From: a virus
Lineage: Duplodnaviria; Heunggongvirae; Uroviricota; Caudoviricetes
Strand: one strand, 5' to 3'
DNA: 64,000 nt
IMG/VR virus record: IMGVR_UViG_3300037312_000757
Position 1 is the first letter of the stretch; the number at the start of each line of letters is the position of its first letter. The notes beneath the pieces were generated by a model. The model saw nothing but the letters and a program-made list of their open reading frames with translations, was not told the DNA's origin and did no database searches. The translations under genes were made by a program, and so were the position numbers. Of the stretch, positions 9,927-17,800 are shown in pieces.

Positions 9927-10003
9927 TGGCGGTCCCTGTGGGATTCGAACCCACGACCCTTGGTTTTGAAGACCAGTGCTCTGACCGCTGGAGCTAAGGG
10001 ACC
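9927..10003 (-). tRNA. tRNA with anticodon UCA (opal suppressor, Trp-like body)
   Basis: GGTCCCT TA GCTC CAGCGGTCA GAGC A CTGGT CTTCAAA ACCAA GGGTC GTGGG TTCGAAT CCCAC AGGGACC G CCA: 7-bp acceptor, T-arm, encoded CCA, loop CU-UCA-AA. Confidence 0.9.
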
Positions 10004-10025
10004 GTTGCGTGTTGCTATAGTTCGT

Positions 10026-10053
10026 ATTCTACTGCCATATGGCAGCAAGTCAA
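10026..10053 (-). promoter_or_regulatory. sigma70 promoter of tRNA(UCA) with palindromic spacer
   Basis: TTGACT-16nt-TAGAAT; spacer contains perfect 14-bp palindrome CTGCCATATGGCAG. Confidence 0.65.
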
Positions 10054-10083
10054 CACTTTTACGAACTACAGCAACCGTATTGC

Positions 10084-10554
10084 TTACTCGTGATCGTAAT
10101 CGTCAACTGTGACGCCTGATGCAGTCACGCGAATGCTGACGTGGTCGCCGAATGCAAACTGAAGCACTTCTTCGCCGAGCGGACTATCCATGAAGTGGAC
10201 CAGATCGTCGAGATCTTGAATGCGACTATGACGGCGGTAACCAGTAAACGTCTGGAGGTCAGCCGGTTCATCATCTTCGCTGTCCCATTCGCCATAGTGG
10301 TTGATGTCTTCATAGTTCGCAGCATAGACATCACTGACACGGAACACACATTCGTCACCATCGTTGAAATATGGTGTGTACTGAACCCACGTGATCACCT
10401 TGATTTCGGGGTGACGAGCGAAAATGCCCTTCAGCTCACTGAGGAAAGCTTGCTTGGCTTCGTTGCGGGCGTTGTCCATCGTCTGTTGCAGACGCATGAC
10501 TGTGTCTTGAAAAGTTGCCTGTTGAATTTGTGTCATTTTAGTCTTCGGCGCCAA
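10084..10554 (-). CDS. conserved phage hypothetical protein
   Basis: WVQYTPYFNDGDECVF...DYDHE. Confidence 0.75.
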   Translation of the reverse strand: MAPKTKMTQIQQATFQDTVMRLQQTMDNARNEAKQAFLSELKGIFARHPEIKVITWVQYTPYFNDGDECVFRVSDVYAANYEDINHYGEWDSEDDEPADLQTFTGYRRHSRIQDLDDLVHFMDSPLGEEVLQFAFGDHVSIRVTASGVTVDDYDHE

Positions 10555-10909
10555 ATGGGATATGTTTGCGGTTTGTGCTAGGGTTCGACTTTTGTGTGCC
10601 TGACATCCATGGCTGAATAGTCATGTTGTTCAGGTATTGTTCGACGGTCGGAATAAAACCCAAGTCTTCCTTGATGTGCTCTTCAGCAACATCACGCGGA
10701 CTGTATTCCTTTCCGTCAGAATTGGTACGCACCACGCCGTACATTTGTTCCACCAGAAAGCAGCCAAATGCACTGTGAAGGATTGCACGATGACGAATAT
10801 CAGGCATGCAAGCCTTGCTTGAGTCGATAAAGTTGTGGATATCCATGTAGTCTTCAGCTACACCACCAAACTTCTTTACCGAGATCTTGGCGTGGAGATA
10901 GGGTTTCAT
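10538..10909 (-). CDS. conserved phage protein (DUF6915-like)
   Basis: PYLHA..S...GG..EDY..IH..D.SK...RHRA.LH...AEEHI.EDLG. Confidence 0.75.
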   Translation of the reverse strand: MKPYLHAKISVKKFGGVAEDYMDIHNFIDSSKACMPDIRHRAILHSAFGCFLVEQMYGVVRTNSDGKEYSPRDVAEEHIKEDLGFIPTVEQYLNNMTIQPWMSGTQKSNPSTNRKHIPFGAED

Positions 10910-10913
10910 TTTA

Positions 10914-11201
10914 TTAGAGCTTGATCAGAACGTTCGTGATAACCGAGTCCGTATCCTTGAACAAGGGATCGACAACAGCATGCGATTCGAGAATGACCAC
11001 ATCGGTGATCTTCGATTCGTCGAACAGCTTCCAGTCAGCTGCGTGAGCGACACCATTCGATTCTTGCTGCGTGCCACGCAGACGGTATTGGTTGTTCTTG
11101 TCTGTGCCGTAGACATGCGGGTTGATCACACGGACTGCGCCGTTGTACGTGAACTTGACTTGCTTGCGTTGCGAGATGGCTGCGAAAATTTCTGCGTTCA
11201 T
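10914..11201 (-). CDS. stand-alone WYL-domain protein
   Basis: AI-x3-K-x-V-x-F-x-Y...R.I.PH.YG...WKLF...KI pattern. Confidence 0.7.
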   Translation of the reverse strand: MNAEIFAAISQRKQVKFTYNGAVRVINPHVYGTDKNNQYRLRGTQQESNGVAHAADWKLFDESKITDVVILESHAVVDPLFKDTDSVITNVLIKL

Positions 11202-11497
11202 TATTTTAGTTCTGCGTAAGAGATTGAGCATTCGACAATGAATTGATTGTCGAGGAATTTCACCGGTACCACGTTGTACAGCTTTGCATCTTCAACTTCC
11301 AGCACCGGCATATGCATACCAATTGCGACAGGCTGATAGCTGAAGTCGATCACGACGTTTTCCCATTTCTGGCCTACTACGCCTTGGGCTTTGGTCGTGC
11401 GCTCTTGATTGAGCGAGAAAATACGACGAAGCAGTGAAGTCTTGACTTCGATTTCACCAGTTTCGACCGTCAATGTTGGTCGTTTTACGAATTTCAT
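11201..11497 (-). CDS. hypothetical protein (paralog of 12289..12609)
   Basis: MKFV.RP...VIDF...Y.V.P..F.D...VEC.I..A. Confidence 0.7.
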   Translation of the reverse strand: MKFVKRPTLTVETGEIEVKTSLLRRIFSLNQERTTKAQGVVGQKWENVVIDFSYQPVAIGMHMPVLEVEDAKLYNVVPVKFLDNQFIVECSISYAELK

Positions 11498-11498
11498 G

Positions 11499-12062
11499 TT
11501 AGTCCCAAAGTGATTGATAGTGTTTGCCGAAGAGCTCGAAGCCTTCTTGCACACGAGCAGCATATTCTTCGTGACCCTTCTTGTCATAAGTGTCGTTTTC
11601 AAAGAACTTGTTGTCAGCATCTTCATCAAGCATTTGCTCGAACGACCAAATCATCTTGTCCATGATCTCGTCCCACTCAGCAAAACCCGCTTTGTCTGCT
11701 TCGTCATCACCTTCTTCGTAGAAGTCGAAGCAAAGTTGCGGCCATTGATGATTCGAACGATCCTCAAAGCCTTTCATGCTGATAGGCGCTCCATGCTTAG
11801 TTTCCTTGAGGATCTTCAACATAGGGAGCACGATGTGCGCAAGTGTGTAGTCCATACTCCAAGTGTCATACTTATCGATCTGAATATCGATCTGACGTTG
11901 ACGCTTTCTGTGGATCCACTCACAGAAGTCTGCAAACTTCGTGGCTGCGAGCTTTTCGCCGATTTTCTCGTGCGTTTCTTCCTTGAAGCCGACATACTTC
12001 AGCAGCTCAGCGATTTGGTAAGGCCCCCACCAATTCAAATATGGTCCGATCTTTACTTTCAT
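11499..12062 (-). CDS. conserved phage hypothetical protein
   Basis: MKVKIGPY...DTWSMDYTLA...GFELFGKHYQSLWD. Confidence 0.8.
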   Translation of the reverse strand: MKVKIGPYLNWWGPYQIAELLKYVGFKEETHEKIGEKLAATKFADFCEWIHRKRQRQIDIQIDKYDTWSMDYTLAHIVLPMLKILKETKHGAPISMKGFEDRSNHQWPQLCFDFYEEGDDEADKAGFAEWDEIMDKMIWSFEQMLDEDADNKFFENDTYDKKGHEEYAARVQEGFELFGKHYQSLWD

Positions 12063-12289
12063 TGTTGTTCGAAAATAGGAATAACTTCGCTTTCAGTCTC
12101 GATCCACACCTTTGCACCACATGACAGAGGTTTGTCAGGTGAATACACAACACGGCAAGGCCCTGTGATCTCAGCAGCGTAAGCGTAGGTGTTAGACTTG
12201 TAAGTCTTGATCGTTAGCACGGGCTCACGTTCATCGTTCTTTGCGTTCGACTTGATAATGTGCTGATTGACGTGGACAACGGTTTTCAT
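12059..12289 (-). CDS. conserved phage hypothetical protein
   Basis: IHVNQH-type start, YSPDKPLSCGAKVWIET. Confidence 0.75.
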   Translation of the reverse strand: MKTVVHVNQHIIKSNAKNDEREPVLTIKTYKSNTYAYAAEITGPCRVVYSPDKPLSCGAKVWIETESEVIPIFEQQ

Positions 12290-12609
12290 TATTGTTCTTT
12301 TGCGTGGTCGATACCGCATTCAACGACAGTCAAGCTGTCGTCTACAAAATTTAGTGGGATAACACCATACATTGTCAGCCCGTCAATCGTCAGTTGATCG
12401 ATCTTGGTATACAGTTGTACTTGATGTTGCTCAAAGTCGATGACTGCTTTCGACCACGTGATTCTTCCATGAAAGTAATGTGTCATGACTGGTGGCTTCA
12501 CCAGCATACGCACATGCCACGGAAGGCTGCGATATTCGGGATCGTCCTTATTGGGACGGTCAATGCCGATTACATCGACAGATTTGACGGGTCTTGAAAC
12601 AAACTTCAT
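12289..12609 (-). CDS. hypothetical protein (paralog of 11201..11497)
   Basis: Shared motifs with 11201..11497. Confidence 0.7.
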   Translation of the reverse strand: MKFVSRPVKSVDVIGIDRPNKDDPEYRSLPWHVRMLVKPPVMTHYFHGRITWSKAVIDFEQHQVQLYTKIDQLTIDGLTMYGVIPLNFVDDSLTVVECGIDHAKEQ

Positions 12610-12716
12610 GTGCTTTGTTATTATTGTGCATCACAGACAACATTATACATATGGCAACTGAAGCCACAAGGCAAAGATGGCACCATTGTGGTGCCATCCT
12701 TAAAGTTGATTCTGTC

Positions 12717-13340
12717 TTACACTGCAACCGACTCAACTGCCTTGAGTGTTGCAACGCCGTCAGCGTCAATCTCAAGCGAACAATCTCGAAGACGAATTGA
12801 ACCCTTCGTACTGTCATGATCCGGTGTTTCTCGCGTCGACCATGGACACAATGCATTGACGTGATGCACGTAGAACGTTTTGCCCTTCGTTTTCAGTACC
12901 CACATGGGAATCCAGGGGAACTCGAGGTGCTTCTTGTTGAAGTGAAAGTCGACACGATCACAGTGCTCAATGCTGATCGGGAACGACGCCAGGTGTTCCT
13001 TCATCGCTTTACGCATGTTCGTGATGTTACCCATGCGAATCTTTGCCTCGTCCAGCACCGTACAGAGCTTATGGGCGGCTACTGACATACCCTTGAGCTT
13101 CTCCCTTGCTCGCGTGTAGGCAACAAAGTGTGGATTGGGCTTGTACTTTGCGTTAGGTGTACCGCGCACAGCTTCCCATTCACGTTCGTGCTCGTTCGTG
13201 AGCTTCTCGTAACGCTGCACAGTTTTCTTTTGCGCCTTGATGCGTGAGCTGACTTGCTTATAAACATCGGCCCACTGTTTGCGCCATTCTTGATAACCTG
13301 CGTAGGTGGTAAATTGGGGTTTCAGTCCGTAAATGCTCAT
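12717..13340 (-). CDS. hypothetical protein
   Basis: Helical N-half plus C-terminal FHFNK...WVLKTKG domain. Confidence 0.7.
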   Translation of the reverse strand: MSIYGLKPQFTTYAGYQEWRKQWADVYKQVSSRIKAQKKTVQRYEKLTNEHEREWEAVRGTPNAKYKPNPHFVAYTRAREKLKGMSVAAHKLCTVLDEAKIRMGNITNMRKAMKEHLASFPISIEHCDRVDFHFNKKHLEFPWIPMWVLKTKGKTFYVHHVNALCPWSTRETPDHDSTKGSIRLRDCSLEIDADGVATLKAVESVAV

Positions 13341-13342
13341 GA

Positions 13343-13693
13343 TTAAATTCCGTTCCAAGTAAGTTTAAAGAGTACCGCATCGACATGTGATTCGAAAATC
13401 ACACCAACTGTATAAGAGCAACCAGATTCCCACCCTACGTGGTCGTATTTGCTCGTACAGTTGTCAATACACCATTGTTTCATATCAGCCATTGATCCAT
13501 ATGTGAAATCATAACACTTCACCAGAAACCAATTAGCTGGATATTTCTTACGCACTTCTGCGATGGCGTATGAGTCTTCCCATTCATCTTCACCAACGAA
13601 GTCGTCGAAATCAAGTTCGTCGTTCTTCGTTTCCACTTCTACTTCTTTCTTTCCCAACAAATTTTTCAATGCTTGAAACATTGGTGTCTCCAT
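13343..13693 (-). CDS. small 'FKLxW' family protein
   Basis: QWCIDNC...FESHVDAVLFKLTW. Confidence 0.75.
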   Translation of the reverse strand: METPMFQALKNLLGKKEVEVETKNDELDFDDFVGEDEWEDSYAIAEVRKKYPANWFLVKCYDFTYGSMADMKQWCIDNCTSKYDHVGWESGCSYTVGVIFESHVDAVLFKLTWNGI

Positions 13694-13925
13694 TTTCTTG
13701 TTTTTCTGTTATTTGGTCACCAAATGCGAACAAGAACGCCATTGCTTCTAGTCGATCCTCTATTCTCCAAAAGTGGAATCGACCTGACTTCTTGTCGCGA
13801 CCTCTAAGCCATGTGGGTCTAATGGATAACTGTTCCACCGACTCACGTTTGATACGAGCCATTGCCTTGTGGAAGCTTTCACCGTCGCCGCCAAAAGGAG
13901 TCCGAACCTCGTATGTTATTGACAT
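13611..13925 (-). CDS. hypothetical protein, possibly 'FKLxW'-related
   Basis: WRIEDRLEAMAFLFAFG. Confidence 0.5.
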   Translation of the reverse strand: MSITYEVRTPFGGDGESFHKAMARIKRESVEQLSIRPTWLRGRDKKSGRFHFWRIEDRLEAMAFLFAFGDQITEKQENGDTNVSSIEKFVGKERSRSGNEERRT

Positions 13926-14356
13926 AGCGAGAACCTCTTGGTGATGTGATGAATTTCTGCTTTGCGAGCAGGACCGATACCCAGCGCAGTGATGATGGGT
14001 TCGCCTGTAAAAGCAGTGCCAGGGATGATGTGATGCTGATCGATAATCAGTTCACAGGGAATGCCAGCTTCCTTTGCGGCGTCGTACGCCTTCAGAATCG
14101 CGTCTTGGTTCTTGGCCTTCAGGCAGATTTTCGTGCCGATGCCGTCTCGCTGGTAAAAATCAGCGATATCAGGACGCTCTTTGAGAGCTTTGAGGTATGC
14201 ATTGAGATACGCGTGTCCGGCTTGTGCGGCAAGTTTGCCGGCAGACATGTTGAGATCGCCTCGCGTAATGGCGTAAAGACGATATGGGTCCTCTTCAGCT
14301 TCCGTTGCGGAATTCTGGAGGAACTCTTGCACTCAGCGATGGTCGAGATGATTCAT
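13916..14356 (-). CDS. pth2: peptidyl-tRNA hydrolase, Pth2 family; ATG 14356 separated from body by in-frame TGA (14333-14335); alternative GTG start 14332
   Basis: RGDLNMSAGKLAAQAGHA, KICLK, IID, TALGIGP = Pth2 motifs; SD AAGGAG 8 nt before ATG 14356. Confidence 0.85.
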
Positions 14357-14453
14357 TTCATTTGCTCCTTTTAGGGTTTCAGTTAGCTAGTGAAGATGTT
14401 TCACTAGAGATCATACTCTAGCATCGTACATCTTCACCGTGCAAATATTTATT

Positions 14454-15392
14454 TCACTTTGTTGCGTCGAGGTAACGAACGGCATCCAATGCAGCTTGAC
14501 AACCTGATCCAGCACTTGTGATGGCTTGACTATACACTGGGTCGGCAACGTCACCGCAAGCAAACACACCAGCTTTGCCGGTTCCTGTTTGGAACGTCAG
14601 ACCCTTTGTAGTCTTGATGAAGCCATAGTCATCAAGCATCAGCTGATCTTTGAACAGATCAGTATTTGGCTTGTGACCGATTGCAATAAACACGCCCGGT
14701 AGCCGGATTGATGTCAATGCTTGGCCGTTTGTGATGCTGATGGAATGCACACCGTTGTCATCACCATGTACTTCACGTAATGTAGAGTTCAGATGCAGCA
14801 CAATCTTGCCTTCATTGACCTTTTCCATCAAGTGATCGATCATGACTTGCTCAGCCTTGAATGTGTCACGACGATGGATCAAATGCACCTTGCTTGCGAT
14901 GTTGGACAGATACAGAGCTTCTTCAACCGCAGTGTTACCGCCACCAACTACCGCAACTTCCTGACCTTCATAGAAAAAGCCGTCACATGTTGCACAGCCT
15001 GATACACCACGTCCAAGGAATTCTTGCTCTGATGGCAGACCCAAATACTTAGCTGAAGCACCAGTCGCGATGATCAGCGAATCGCAAGTGTATGTGTCAC
15101 CAGTTTCTGTTGTCAGGGTGTATGGCTTGGTGTTGAGGTCAACGTTATTGACATAATCAATCACTACATTTGCACCAAAGCGAGTAGCGTGATCCTCGAG
15201 ACGTTGCATGAGGTCTGGGCCCATGATGCCTGTGACGTCGCCTGGCCAATTGTCAACTGTGGTGGTGGTCATCAGCTGGCCACCTTTGTCGAAGCCAGTG
15301 ATAACCGTTGGCTTCAAGCCTGCTCGTGCAGCGTAAAGGGCAGCGGTCCAACCAGCCGGGCCACTACCGAGAATAATGAGTTTTGAATGCAT
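14454..15392 (-). CDS. trxB: thioredoxin reductase
   Basis: GSGPAG, CATCDG, GGGNTA, HRR, GD motifs. Confidence 0.95.
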
Positions 15393-15404
15393 ATTTTTCC
15401 AATG

Positions 15405-15441
15405 AAAAAGCCCCAGTAGGGTTTCTACTGGGGCTTATTTT
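15405..15441. terminator. intrinsic terminator
   Basis: AAGCCCCAGTAG/CTACTGGGGCTT hairpin with A/T tails. Confidence 0.7.
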
Positions 15442-15466
15442 ACTGGAAAGCTGGCTACTGGCCGAA

Positions 15467-15859
15467 TTACTTGATGTACGGCTTGACGTGCTCGACTGCC
15501 ATCTTGTAGCGCTTGCCATCGGCAGCTTCGACCTGCACCGGGTATTCGCGCGCCTTCGTGTTCCAGCCGATGATCTTGAACGTACCGAGCCGCGGATGGC
15601 TGTAGCTCTTCTCGAGGTCGATACCCGGGAGATACAGCTTCGCGTACACCTCCAGAGCACTGGCCTTGCGTTCTTGCTTGCGACCTTCACTACCTTGCGT
15701 CATGAACTCGACCTTCACGAGACTCGACGTCGGCGAGAACGACGCTCCGCGCACTGCCACGTTCAGGCCGTACTTCTTGGCAAACTCCTGCAGGTGAGCG
15801 TTGAGTGCAGCGTTGAGGTCACGTGCAACTGCGCGGTCGAACTGTTGAACTTTTTCCAT
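15467..15859 (-). CDS. hypothetical protein
   Basis: AAGGAGAG SD; C-terminal F.IIG.N...EYPV...DGKRYK. Confidence 0.7.
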   Translation of the reverse strand: MEKVQQFDRAVARDLNAALNAHLQEFAKKYGLNVAVRGASFSPTSSLVKVEFMTQGSEGRKQERKASALEVYAKLYLPGIDLEKSYSHPRLGTFKIIGWNTKAREYPVQVEAADGKRYKMAVEHVKPYIK

Positions 15860-15925
15860 TTGTTGCTCTCCTTTGTTGTTTACCATGCATCAAATGATAA
15901 GTTCACTTGAACCGCCAGTCAACAC

Positions 15926-16249
15926 TTATTTGACTATCACTCTCATTCTGTTGGCTGTGAACACAACCTCCAAGTATTCCGATACATAGTTCGGAGCCCA
16001 CCACTCGAATACTTTGAAACCATCAGCGATGGGGATTGACGTCGTTTCGACTAACCCGTTGCGCTTGACTGCTGCTTTGATAACGTCATCGCTGATGCTG
16101 GCGTAATGCGCCTCCAACAGGGTGTCACTGTTGTTCACCAGCATGAGCTGCGGTACGTTCACTTCACGCAGCGACAGCATAATATCGCTTGCTTTTCGTT
16201 CGAAAGCTTTGAAGGCAGTGTCGTAGGCCGCCTGCTTGATTCTGCTCAT
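15926..16249 (-). CDS. hypothetical protein
   Basis: 107-aa ORF. Confidence 0.6.
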   Translation of the reverse strand: MSRIKQAAYDTAFKAFERKASDIMLSLREVNVPQLMLVNNSDTLLEAHYASISDDVIKAAVKRNGLVETTSIPIADGFKVFEWWAPNYVSEYLEVVFTANRMRVIVK

Positions 16250-16332
16250 TTACCGTCCCAAATATATCAGTTAACTCAAAAAGAATGAGCTGCCATTTTA
16301 GCAGCTCATTCGGTCGTCAACAAGCGAAGTGA

Positions 16333-16785
16333 TTAGGATGGTTCGTGGTCCCTGATGCGCTCGCGTTGTTGTGCATCGTATTTGTGGGCAGACTTAGCAC
16401 CAGTTCCCGACATGGGCCAGAAACGGTCATCGTCTATGATGCTACGCCGAGAGTTCTGTGATGCTTCCCTGAGGTTGGCATATTGATCGGTGTGAGTGCC
16501 AGAAGGATATTCGACAGGCCGATCAGTTTGAGGCGATGCTGTTTGCATTTTCTCAACCACGTTCACAAATTGAATTACCGGGAAACTGTTCAACCAACCA
16601 GCTTCGGCACGCTTGCAGTTCTCCATATAAAAGTCGCAGCAAGCGCCCGATACTTCGACAAGCGGTGCGAATATTCCCCATGAAAGCAGATTTGCGTAAT
16701 TGGTTACGGCTTTTACCGTTGATACTTGGGCTTCAGCAACCAGTGTTGTGAGCCCGTTAATCCGCTTAAACGTTTCTGCCAACAT
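16333..16785 (-). CDS. hypothetical protein
   Basis: 150-aa ORF. Confidence 0.5.
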   Translation of the reverse strand: MLAETFKRINGLTTLVAEAQVSTVKAVTNYANLLSWGIFAPLVEVSGACCDFYMENCKRAEAGWLNSFPVIQFVNVVEKMQTASPQTDRPVEYPSGTHTDQYANLREASQNSRRSIIDDDRFWPMSGTGAKSAHKYDAQQRERIRDHEPS

Positions 16786-16814
16786 AGCGATCCCTTAATA
16801 AGCTAATATGTCAA

Positions 16815-16970
16815 TTACATGCCCTTTCGTTGTTGATCGGACTGCTGATTGGGATGCTTTTGCTGGCCCTGGTCTCTCCGTTGTTCCTGCTGGTTCGGTT
16901 TCTGATTCTGCTGGCCCTGGCCTTGATTCTGGCTCTGCGACTGATCCGACTGCTGATTGGATTGGCTCAT
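16815..16970 (-). CDS. Gln-rich 51-aa peptide
   Basis: MSQSNQQSDQ...; GGAG SD upstream of ATG 16970. Confidence 0.55.
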   Translation of the reverse strand: MSQSNQQSDQSQSQNQGQGQQNQKPNQQEQRRDQGQQKHPNQQSDQQRKGM

Positions 16971-17064
16971 GAACTTCTCCAGAGAGTTGAGATCCCCGTT
17001 ACCGGGACAAACAATTGTACAGAGCTGATCTGAAAGCGCAATACATGATTCATAGCCATCAATA

Positions 17065-17092
17065 CAAAAGGGCCACTTGCGTGGCCCTTTTG
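17065..17092 (-). terminator. terminator of tmRNA gene
   Basis: AAAAGGGCCAC-GCAA-GTGGCCCTTTT. Confidence 0.8.
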
Positions 17093-17532
17093 GGTGTTTT
17101 CTGTTGCTAGGCATTTCCTGCCCCGGCATCGCTTAATCCCGAAGGATTAAGCAGCCATCGCAAAAACGTTGTCGTTTGCGGTTACTTCTTTTGTGCGCTT
17201 TACGAGCGTCACCTCAACGGATACCTCGTCTAATCTTTATTACCGCCCGTCGAAACCAGGTCGGGCCCATCAGGACAGTCCTCAGAGTACCAACGGGGTA
17301 AGCACTTTACGCCTTATCAGTGCGTCGCTTTGCCCAATTACCCCCAGTGTGAACCAGGGCGCTTGTGAGAGCTACAGCCTGCTTAGTTAGCAAGTGCTCT
17401 ACTAAAACTCTGTCATTCTGCACGCTTATCGCGAATCTGCTTGCATTCAGACCACAAAGACTGTTTTGGTGGACCCGGCGGGAATCGAACCCGCGTCCGA
17501 ACCGTCTATTCCATTAGATGTCAACAGCATCA
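17093..17532 (-). ncRNA. ssrA: tmRNA, circularly permuted (two-piece): acceptor piece ~17532-17467, coding piece 17268-~17093
   Basis: 3' end GCGGG TTCGATT CCCGC CGGGTCC A CCA lies upstream of 5' end GGGCCCGACCTGGTTTCGAC; acceptor stem with G3.U70, A73; tag ORF 17179-17147 ANDNVFAMAA*. Confidence 0.92.
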
Positions 17533-17538
17533 AAACAA

Positions 17539-17567
17539 ATGATAACGCAATTAGTTCACCGCGTCAA
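17539..17567 (-). promoter_or_regulatory. sigma70 promoter of tmRNA
   Basis: TTGACG-17nt-TATCAT. Confidence 0.75.
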
Positions 17568-17800
17568 GCGCTGTTTGCACCCAGGTGGCTGTTATTCACA
17601 ACACTCCGAGGAAGCGCTTTGAAGACGGCATGGCGATCGTTCTTGACGGCAATGCCTTGAGGTTTGAAGAAGGGAGCCATTGGGTCCTGTCTTGCGTAGG
17701 TGTCTTCCATAGCGTCGACCCATTCGAAGAAACGCTTGCGGTCGTATTCTTCGGGCGTTGTGCAGCCGTGCGCTGCGAGGAAATCTTGCTCATCGTGCAT
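17564..17800 (-). CDS. hypothetical protein
   Basis: Start MHDEQ after AGGAGA. Confidence 0.55.
   Translation of the reverse strand: MHDEQDFLAAHGCTTPEEYDRKRFFEWVDAMEDTYARQDPMAPFFKPQGIAVKNDRHAVFKALPRSVVNNSHLGANSA

Follow-up and report, generated by a model that had tools for sequence, protein, structure and literature searches.

Stop-codon recoding, with TAG or TGA reassigned and suppressor tRNAs supplied by the phage, has reportedly been described for phages. In recoded phages a phage tRNA with a CUA or UCA anticodon reads in-frame stops in phage genes; many, mostly late genes with many in-frame stops are concerned, and the code is effectively changed. Phage-encoded suppressor tRNAs are known from these recoded phages (PMC13037316). 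Many large phages with the standard code carry suppressor tRNAs as well, and the Atu_ph07 and XacN1 papers state that the target was not identifiable. In the autoregulation of prfB, the gene of release factor 2 (RF2), an early in-frame UGA follows a start driven by a Shine-Dalgarno (SD) site, and output is set by RF2 competition at the A site; a +1 frameshift is needed, no dedicated tRNA takes part, and the gene senses its own product. Viral read-through, as in the A1 protein of Q-beta or gag-pol of murine leukaemia virus (MuLV), lets a fraction of the ribosomes pass an in-frame stop to give a functional longer product, with host near-cognate tRNAs acting on a stop at the end of a full gene and a C-terminal extension as the result. 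The bar minigenes of phage lambda, very short phage reading frames tied to peptidyl-tRNA hydrolase biology, exert toxicity in hosts deficient in Pth by way of peptidyl-tRNA drop-off, with no in-frame fusion to pth. A synthetic suppressor-tRNA feed-forward “leak dampener” has been engineered in E. coli (PMC7969014), in which a target gene with an in-frame nonsense codon is translated only with co-expressed suppressor tRNA. Herein we describe a 64,000-nucleotide stretch (“the window”) of the Caudoviricetes virus record IMGVR_UViG_3300037312_000757, which encodes an opal suppressor tRNA and, on the same strand, a Pth2-type peptidyl-tRNA hydrolase gene preceded by a short leader that ends in an in-frame TGA. 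No published description of a suppressor-gated Pth2 was found in the literature.

The analysis suggests that the window contains, in its opal form, a conserved phage module in which a suppressor tRNA is combined with a specialised Pth2 paralog gated by the stop that this tRNA reads; we regard this assignment as rather probable. In contrast to the recoded phages, the standard code is kept and one gene is concerned, with one stop (two in some relatives) in a short, non-conserved leader. Compared to prfB, reading would be in frame, the same element supplies the cognate suppressor tRNA, and the gene specifies Pth2 and not a release factor. Relative to Q-beta and MuLV, the stop follows a short leader, any useful product would require read-through, and a cognate tRNA whose anticodon co-varies with the stop comes from the virus itself. 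Whereas the leak dampener is engineered, the present arrangement is natural, widespread in large phages, and has a fixed target, Pth2. Unlike the lambda bar minigenes, the leader is fused in frame to Pth2. An out-of-frame ATG-AAA-TGA mini-ORF (open reading frame) that overlaps the leader start (14353-14361, minus strand) was considered and dropped, as it is absent from locus L025 of a relative with 92% identity; in appearance it is a duplication of 5 nt (ATGAA).

The virus record to which the window belongs comprises 523,836 bp, is bounded by direct terminal repeats, and has a CheckV completeness of 100%, and the sequence is present in two rhizosphere metagenomes; there are no RNA runs among the listed holders of this stretch. 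In the following, G000 denotes the full genome of this phage, G001, G002, G004 and G012 denote other phage genomes, and L-numbers denote loci. The preliminary description had placed a tRNA(UCA), a UGA-interrupted Pth2 gene, and a transfer-messenger RNA (tmRNA) on one strand, and ARAGORN, Rfam, Pfam, and the sequence itself confirm all three where they had been placed, on the minus strand (Table 1). The word “interrupted” applies in part: the in-frame TGA is present, but it ends a seven-codon leader ahead of the domain and does not lie inside it. The reading order, in a single frame, is AAGGAG, 8 nt, ATG (14356), AAT CAT CTC GAC CAT CGC, TGA (14335-14333), and GTG (14332). AAGGAG (14370-14365) is the sole SD site ahead of Pth2, and GTG 14332 lacks an SD site of its own. 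The predicted read-through product (13916-14356) has about 146 residues.

Table 1 Features of the window that belong to, or lie near, the gated Pth2 gene
Feature	Positions	Strand	Basis and remarks
Shine-Dalgarno site AAGGAG	14365-14370	minus	Sequence; 8 nt 5' of the leader ATG
Leader MNHLDHR: ATG and six sense codons, then in-frame TGA (14335-14333)	14333-14356	minus	Translation and sequence
Body of the gated Pth2 paralog, 138 codons and TAA	13916-14332	minus	Pfam PF01981, NCBIfam, PDB 2zv3
104-aa ORF, ATG overlapping the Pth2 end (ATGTCAATAA)	13611-13925	minus	ORF list and sequence
Opal suppressor tRNA, anticodon UCA, 77 nt	9927-10003	minus	ARAGORN; Rfam RF00005, 63 bits; sequence; fold
Sigma-70-like promoter of the tRNA gene, TTGACT-16 nt-TAGAAT	10026-10053	minus	Consensus scan, 10/12; pattern match only
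Two-piece (circularly permuted) tmRNA of alphaproteobacterial type	17056-17571	minus	ARAGORN 17056-17559; Rfam 17089-17571
Sigma-70-like tmRNA promoter, 10/12 consensus positions	17539-17567	minus	Promoter scan

The protein downstream of the leader stop is a complete, if divergent, PTH2 domain. The ORF covers model positions 2-115 of 115 in the Pfam PTH2 family (E=2.7e-25, 89 bits, cut-off 23), and codons 1-18 form an acidic linker without conservation, the fold beginning at about codon 19. An archaeal Pth2 structure matches (PDB 2zv3, E=2.4e-15), and 2zv3, 1wn2, and 1q7s align end to end. The NCBIfam Pth2 equivalog models score 81 and 71 bits, under their cut-offs of 126 and 82, and the protein is therefore considered a divergent member. 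K33, within a GK..Q.H motif, and D98 do not vary among six gated Pth2 proteins that were aligned, and both align with the archaeal enzymes; the conserved Lys of this motif and the conserved Asp are reported to be the catalytic pair of archaeal Pth2. A second, ordinary Pth2 gene with a plain ATG start lies outside the window (G000:444892-445288; the protein begins MPTKQVIVARRDLNM) and falls in the clade of ungated phage Pth2s such as those of Xoo-sp13, RsoM2USA, and Myrna. As an ordinary Pth2 is also encoded, the gated enzyme is attributed to a second, specialised paralog, and its natural substrate could differ from that of the ordinary enzyme. Two Pth2 matches each were likewise found in Sinorhizobium phage Phosso (469 kb) and Agrobacterium phage Atu_ph07 (490 kb), the closest cultured phages, with a Pth2 identity to the gated protein of about 50% each.

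To define how widespread the layout is, IMG/VR was scanned twice, once with the window protein and once with the alignment of six gated Pth2 proteins, and every locus was read frame by frame. The gated layout was found in 32 distinct phage loci, i.e. the window and 31 others. It consists of an SD-like motif, ATG, a short leader, an in-frame stop, and 15-53 mostly start-less codons, followed by the LRLYAI-R-DL-M-GK core. Leaders are mostly 2-9 codons long (up to 21-23 in two loci) and end in TAG, TGA, or TAA; some carry two stops, namely two TAGs in L112 and L120 and two TAAs in L117. The SD-like motif precedes the leader ATG in 22 of the 26 loci checked. A suppressor tRNA was found for 26 of the 32 loci, and its anticodon reads the leader stop in all 26: the pairs are TAG/CUA in 22 cases, TGA/UCA in three (the window, L025, and Atu_ph07), and TAA/UUA in one (L117). 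One of the 22 CUA cases (L113) is an odd-looped tRNA left unnamed by ARAGORN. None of the 32 loci has only a non-cognate suppressor. Under random pairing of stop and anticodon, the chance of a perfect match is about 1.7e-5, or 1.4e-4 if the window and L025 are counted once. The suppressor is no more than 10 kb away in 24 loci, and its distance upstream of the leader is often 100-250 nt, which gives a compact cassette; the window represents an opal version with its parts spread over several kb.

The cultured phages illustrate the same pairing. The Phosso leader reads TAGGAG, 8 nt, ATG AAG TAT TAG GTT (MKY-TAG), and this phage has two CUA tRNAs and no UCA; the Atu_ph07 leader reads ATG ATT GGC GAA CAC TTT TGA ATT (MIGEHF-TGA), together with one UCA tRNA. 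Between the leader stop and the internal Met, neither phage offers an ATG, GTG, or TTG. Starting at that internal Met would remove the first strand of the fold; annotators have called such truncated coding sequences. The gated genes group together in a maximum-likelihood tree of the Pth2 domain, and the stop type changed at least three times, with TGA arising twice inside TAG clades (the window with L025, and Atu_ph07) and TAA once (L117). In each of these lineages the leader stop is matched by the anticodon. Val is encoded directly after the stop throughout the clade of the window, as GTG in the window and L025 and as GTT in L096, L026, Phosso, and L106; since GTT is not a start codon, this position appears to behave as a sense codon. 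The preliminary description had made Pth2 synthesis depend on read-through by the phage's own suppressor, and this is supported by the agreement of stop and anticodon in all 26 loci with a suppressor, which persisted through three independent changes of the stop type.

For comparison, about 29 phage Pth2 genes with plain ATG starts were inspected, among them those of the cultured phages phiM12, Myrna, Munch, RsoM2USA, Xoo-sp13, and Kikimora. No suppressor was found near these genes, except for one UCA tRNA on the opposite strand.

The tRNA(UCA) of the window folds into a canonical cloverleaf with a 7-bp acceptor stem, a 5-bp T stem, a 5-nt variable loop, G73, and an encoded CCA. The anticodon loop has 7 nt (CU-UCA-AA) with U33 and a purine at position 37. 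ARAGORN finds no other suppressor tRNA in the 524-kb genome. The anticodon arms of the suppressors, including this one, resemble tRNA-Trp, and one CUA tRNA of Phosso is 80% identical to the tRNA-Trp of Atu_ph07. ARAGORN called no tRNA-Trp in this genome. Outside the window, at about G000:394,700-394,795, a tRNA-Trp-like element was observed with A1-U72, G73, and CUCCAAA in the anticodon arm. It lacks a normal D arm, an insert of 33 nt precedes its T arm, and ARAGORN missed it. The idea that tRNA(UCA) doubles as tRNA-Trp was dropped, as this Trp-like element with a CCA anticodon exists elsewhere in the genome. A search with a loose anticodon-loop pattern returned mostly noise.

In the proposed mechanism, ribosomes would load at the sole SD site, start at ATG 14356, and meet the UGA after seven codons. 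Should RF2 win the A site, a heptapeptide would be released and no enzyme formed. Should charged tRNA(UCA) win, translation would continue in frame through the 18-residue linker into the PTH2 fold, and the ribosome would probably pass on to the next ORF via the overlapping stop and start. Pth2 output would then be a read-out of suppressor-tRNA activity versus termination, i.e. a feed-forward gate. The inserted residue should be irrelevant because the stop sits in a non-conserved N-terminal extension, and acceptance of any residue would therefore fit the varied acceptor stems and discriminator bases of the suppressors. Indirectly, from the co-variation of leader stop and anticodon, we infer that the tRNA is expressed and charged and that read-through occurs. 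As to the purpose, our best guess is that a potentially harmful or specialised tRNA-deacylating enzyme is tied to the time and level of phage tRNA-system activity; a coupling of phage-made read-through load to clean-up is possible. Alternatively, the tRNA may exist mainly to license one enzyme, by analogy a natural counterpart of the leak dampener. Taken one step further, the “orphan” suppressor tRNAs of standard-code giant phages might be dedicated trans-activators of one specialised Pth2 and its coupled genes, with the leader weighing charged phage tRNA against release factor. This extension is put forward tentatively. If it were true, a phage could sense the translation state, for example a host attack on tRNAs or a limitation of release factor, and respond with a tRNA-deacylating enzyme.

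Several observations weigh against a gate of this kind. L100, a locus with a TAG leader in the complete 543-kb genome G004, lacks a detectable CUA tRNA although 65 tRNAs are encoded, and a cognate tRNA was found neither on the incomplete contigs of L103, L110, L112, and L115 nor on the 41-kb fragment of L097. In L097, moreover, a C5 run is the site at which the double-TAG leader and the gene differ in frame by one base. The acceptor stems and discriminator bases of the suppressors vary widely among phages, so that no common aminoacyl-tRNA synthetase can be named. TGA-ended genes of the phage are not enriched in back-up stops relative to TAA-ended genes; because a strong opal suppressor should be costly with about 30% of genes ending in TGA, suppression would have to be weak, context-dependent, or tolerated. 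Lastly, GTG directly follows the TGA in the window and in L025, and for this reason some tRNA-independent Pth2 may be formed by termination and reinitiation. Carried through, this would mean that the seven-codon leader is translated, the ribosome stops at TGA and restarts at GTG 14332, the leader is a mere coupling ORF, and the tRNA serves otherwise. Stop-start coupling is common in phages, and the post-stop ATT of Atu_ph07 is a rare start codon. However, the post-stop codon is no start codon in most relatives (GTT, GAA, GAT, ACT, AAC, AAA, CTG), a canonical start ahead of the fold is missing in 19 gated loci, and reinitiation needs neither the conserved frame nor the match of stop and anticodon, both of which are kept. 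Reinitiation as the full explanation is thus considered improbable. That the TGA is a sequencing error, an inactivating mutation of a pseudogene, or a selenocysteine codon is scarcely credible. The label “SeC” given to the tRNA by ARAGORN speaks for selenocysteine, and this label is owed to the anticodon; tRNA-Sec has about 90-100 nt, a long variable arm, and 8+5 or 9+4 acceptor and T stems, unlike the 77-nt cloverleaf with its 7-bp acceptor stem and short variable loop. Nor can selenocysteine insertion explain the TAG and TAA relatives with matching tRNAs. Loci from many samples, 32 in total, share the layout, and L025, from a phage of another sample with a Pth2 92% identical to that of the window, reads MKHLDHR-TGA-GTG. 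In the second rhizosphere metagenome, which stems from a different study, contigs span the whole stretch with zero differing letters and show the TGA without a variant. With this independent agreement, an assembly error is discounted. The stop always lies in the leader and is never scattered in the domain, with the sole exception of a second TAG in L115. There (L115:10001-10420, on a contig 79% complete), the additional TAG lies inside the PTH2 domain, after KAITADP, beside the leader TAG, and this phage may therefore use TAG more widely.

Two further explanations extend read-through beyond Pth2. If TGA were read as an amino acid in many genes, in the manner of code 4 or as late-gene recoding in Lak and crAss-like phages, Pth2 would be one target of many. 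A suppressor tRNA is indeed present, and recoded phages with such tRNAs are well known (PMC13037316), yet the genome comparison makes this very improbable. The all-against-all comparison took in every open frame of five whole or partial genomes, namely those of this phage, of two relatives from IMG/VR, of Phosso, and of Atu_ph07. In none of them was an in-frame cognate TGA, TAG, or TAA found that is spanned by homology inside a conserved coding region, which holds for TGA in this genome and its relatives and likewise for TAG in the CUA phages. Comparison of read-through ORFs with relatives, performed in search of genome-wide recoding, gave only shadow-frame or upstream non-coding artefacts, the few apparent matches being upstream non-coding DNA common to the two closest genomes. 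TGA terminates 30% of 439 conserved ORFs, and about 30% of the conserved genes of this phage; the share is 30% in the three UCA phages and not lower than in CUA phages. We also screened the conserved ORFs of the five genomes for an SD site and ATG within nine codons of an upstream stop, combined with the absence of an SD-served start of their own. The pattern is rare (1-3 cases per genome), and of all families Pth2 alone has it in each of the five, always with the cognate stop. The arrangement is gene-specific gating and not a changed genetic code, in keeping with the earlier proposal of targeted suppression. The other explanation is the complete circuit envisaged in the preliminary description: tRNA(UCA) would raise UGA read-through in host and phage messages, while Pth2, in an amount scaled to the load, and tmRNA would remove non-stop ribosomes and dropped peptidyl-tRNAs. 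The support for the gate itself counts in its favour, as does a rescue set in the genome comprising tmRNA, SmpB, the ordinary Pth2, and a truncated RF1-like protein. tmRNA and Pth are reportedly linked functionally in E. coli. Furthermore, 10 of the 32 gated loci have a tmRNA no more than 10 kb away from Pth2, versus 1 of about 29 ungated loci. Conversely, Atu_ph07 has the gate and no tmRNA, and in Phosso the tmRNA is 173 kb away from Pth2. The TGA-ended genes of the phage show neither back-up stops nor TGA avoidance, and the lack of back-up stops speaks against strong general read-through. An ungated Pth2 is already at hand for general clean-up, and the truncated RF1-like gene also occurs in a TAG/CUA phage, i.e. 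it does not track the suppressor type. On balance the complete circuit is unlikely. A check of co-occurrence in related phages, as suggested earlier, favours the cognate suppressor and the gated Pth2 (26 of 32 loci) but not a nearby tmRNA; an obligatory role of the tmRNA is not supported, and this RNA is regarded as a neighbour of the gate and not as a required component.

tmRNA, SmpB, and the ordinary Pth2 are separate parts of a phage translation-rescue toolkit. The tmRNA encodes the tag ANDNVFAMAA followed by a stop (ARAGORN) and matches the Rfam families RF04321 (121 bits, gathering 47) and RF01849 (96 bits, gathering 50). A full-length phage SmpB is found outside the window (L215:1501-1929, equal to G000:330541-330969), with 192 bits in Pfam and 203 in NCBIfam (cut-off 130). 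With SmpB and tmRNA, both parts of trans-translation are therefore carried by the phage. The RF1-like protein (L216:1315-1878, equal to G000:449591-450154, likewise outside the window) has 187 residues and lacks domain 1; it matches positions 155-332 of the prfA model and contains the PPT codon-recognition motif and GGQ. An orthologue was found in the TAG/CUA phage G012 (L218), and none in Phosso, Atu_ph07, G001, or G002. A co-variation of release factor with suppressor type was considered and discarded on the grounds of this orthologue in a CUA phage.

For the suppressor tRNAs of large standard-code phages, the gated Pth2 offers a concrete, conserved, and co-varying target, and the question can now be tested in cultured systems, i.e. 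with Atu_ph07 on Agrobacterium C58 and Phosso on Sinorhizobium. If the gate operates as proposed, it would constitute a natural case of a tRNA acting as gene-specific translational activator and a ready-made orthogonal switch in amber, opal, and ochre versions, and it would indicate a specialised role for a second Pth2 in phage infection. The finding also bears on annotation, as gated Pth2 genes are at present either annotated in truncated form, beginning at an internal Met, or listed as hypothetical proteins.

Additional features were noted around the gated gene. The 104-aa ORF is probably translationally coupled to the gated Pth2, because its ATG overlaps the Pth2 stop; it is conserved in G001 and G002 and has no match in Pfam or PHROG. 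Between the end of an oxidoreductase gene (14454-15392) and the leader SD site lies a nested stable hairpin (14388-14438, minus strand) with no U tract, and the segment 14290-14440, which contains this hairpin, folds with −40 kcal/mol (z = −2.3). Folding revealed no RNA structure at the leader stop itself, the stable hairpin being located only upstream of the SD site. An arrest leader of the RGPP/RAPP type was searched for as an M-x(1-8)-stop-...-R[AGS][PS]P frame, and none occurs anywhere in the window. Between the tRNA and Pth2, a DUF6915 protein is encoded (10538-10909, minus strand; Pfam E=1.7e-41). None of the other ORFs tested between 10.0 and 13.9 kb belongs to a Pfam family, and a comparison of a few of them with PHROGs yielded families of unknown function only. 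A screen for “start-less conserved ORFs”, aimed at other gated genes, gave much noise with each of the three stops, Pth2 being the sole recurrent case. Outside the window, at G000:108092-109200 (minus strand), an ORF of about 290 codons overlaps with a subsequent ORF of 83 codons, which lies in the −1 frame and has no start codon ahead of its conserved part. The pair is also present in G001, Phosso, and Atu_ph07, and is probably a case of programmed −1 frameshifting.

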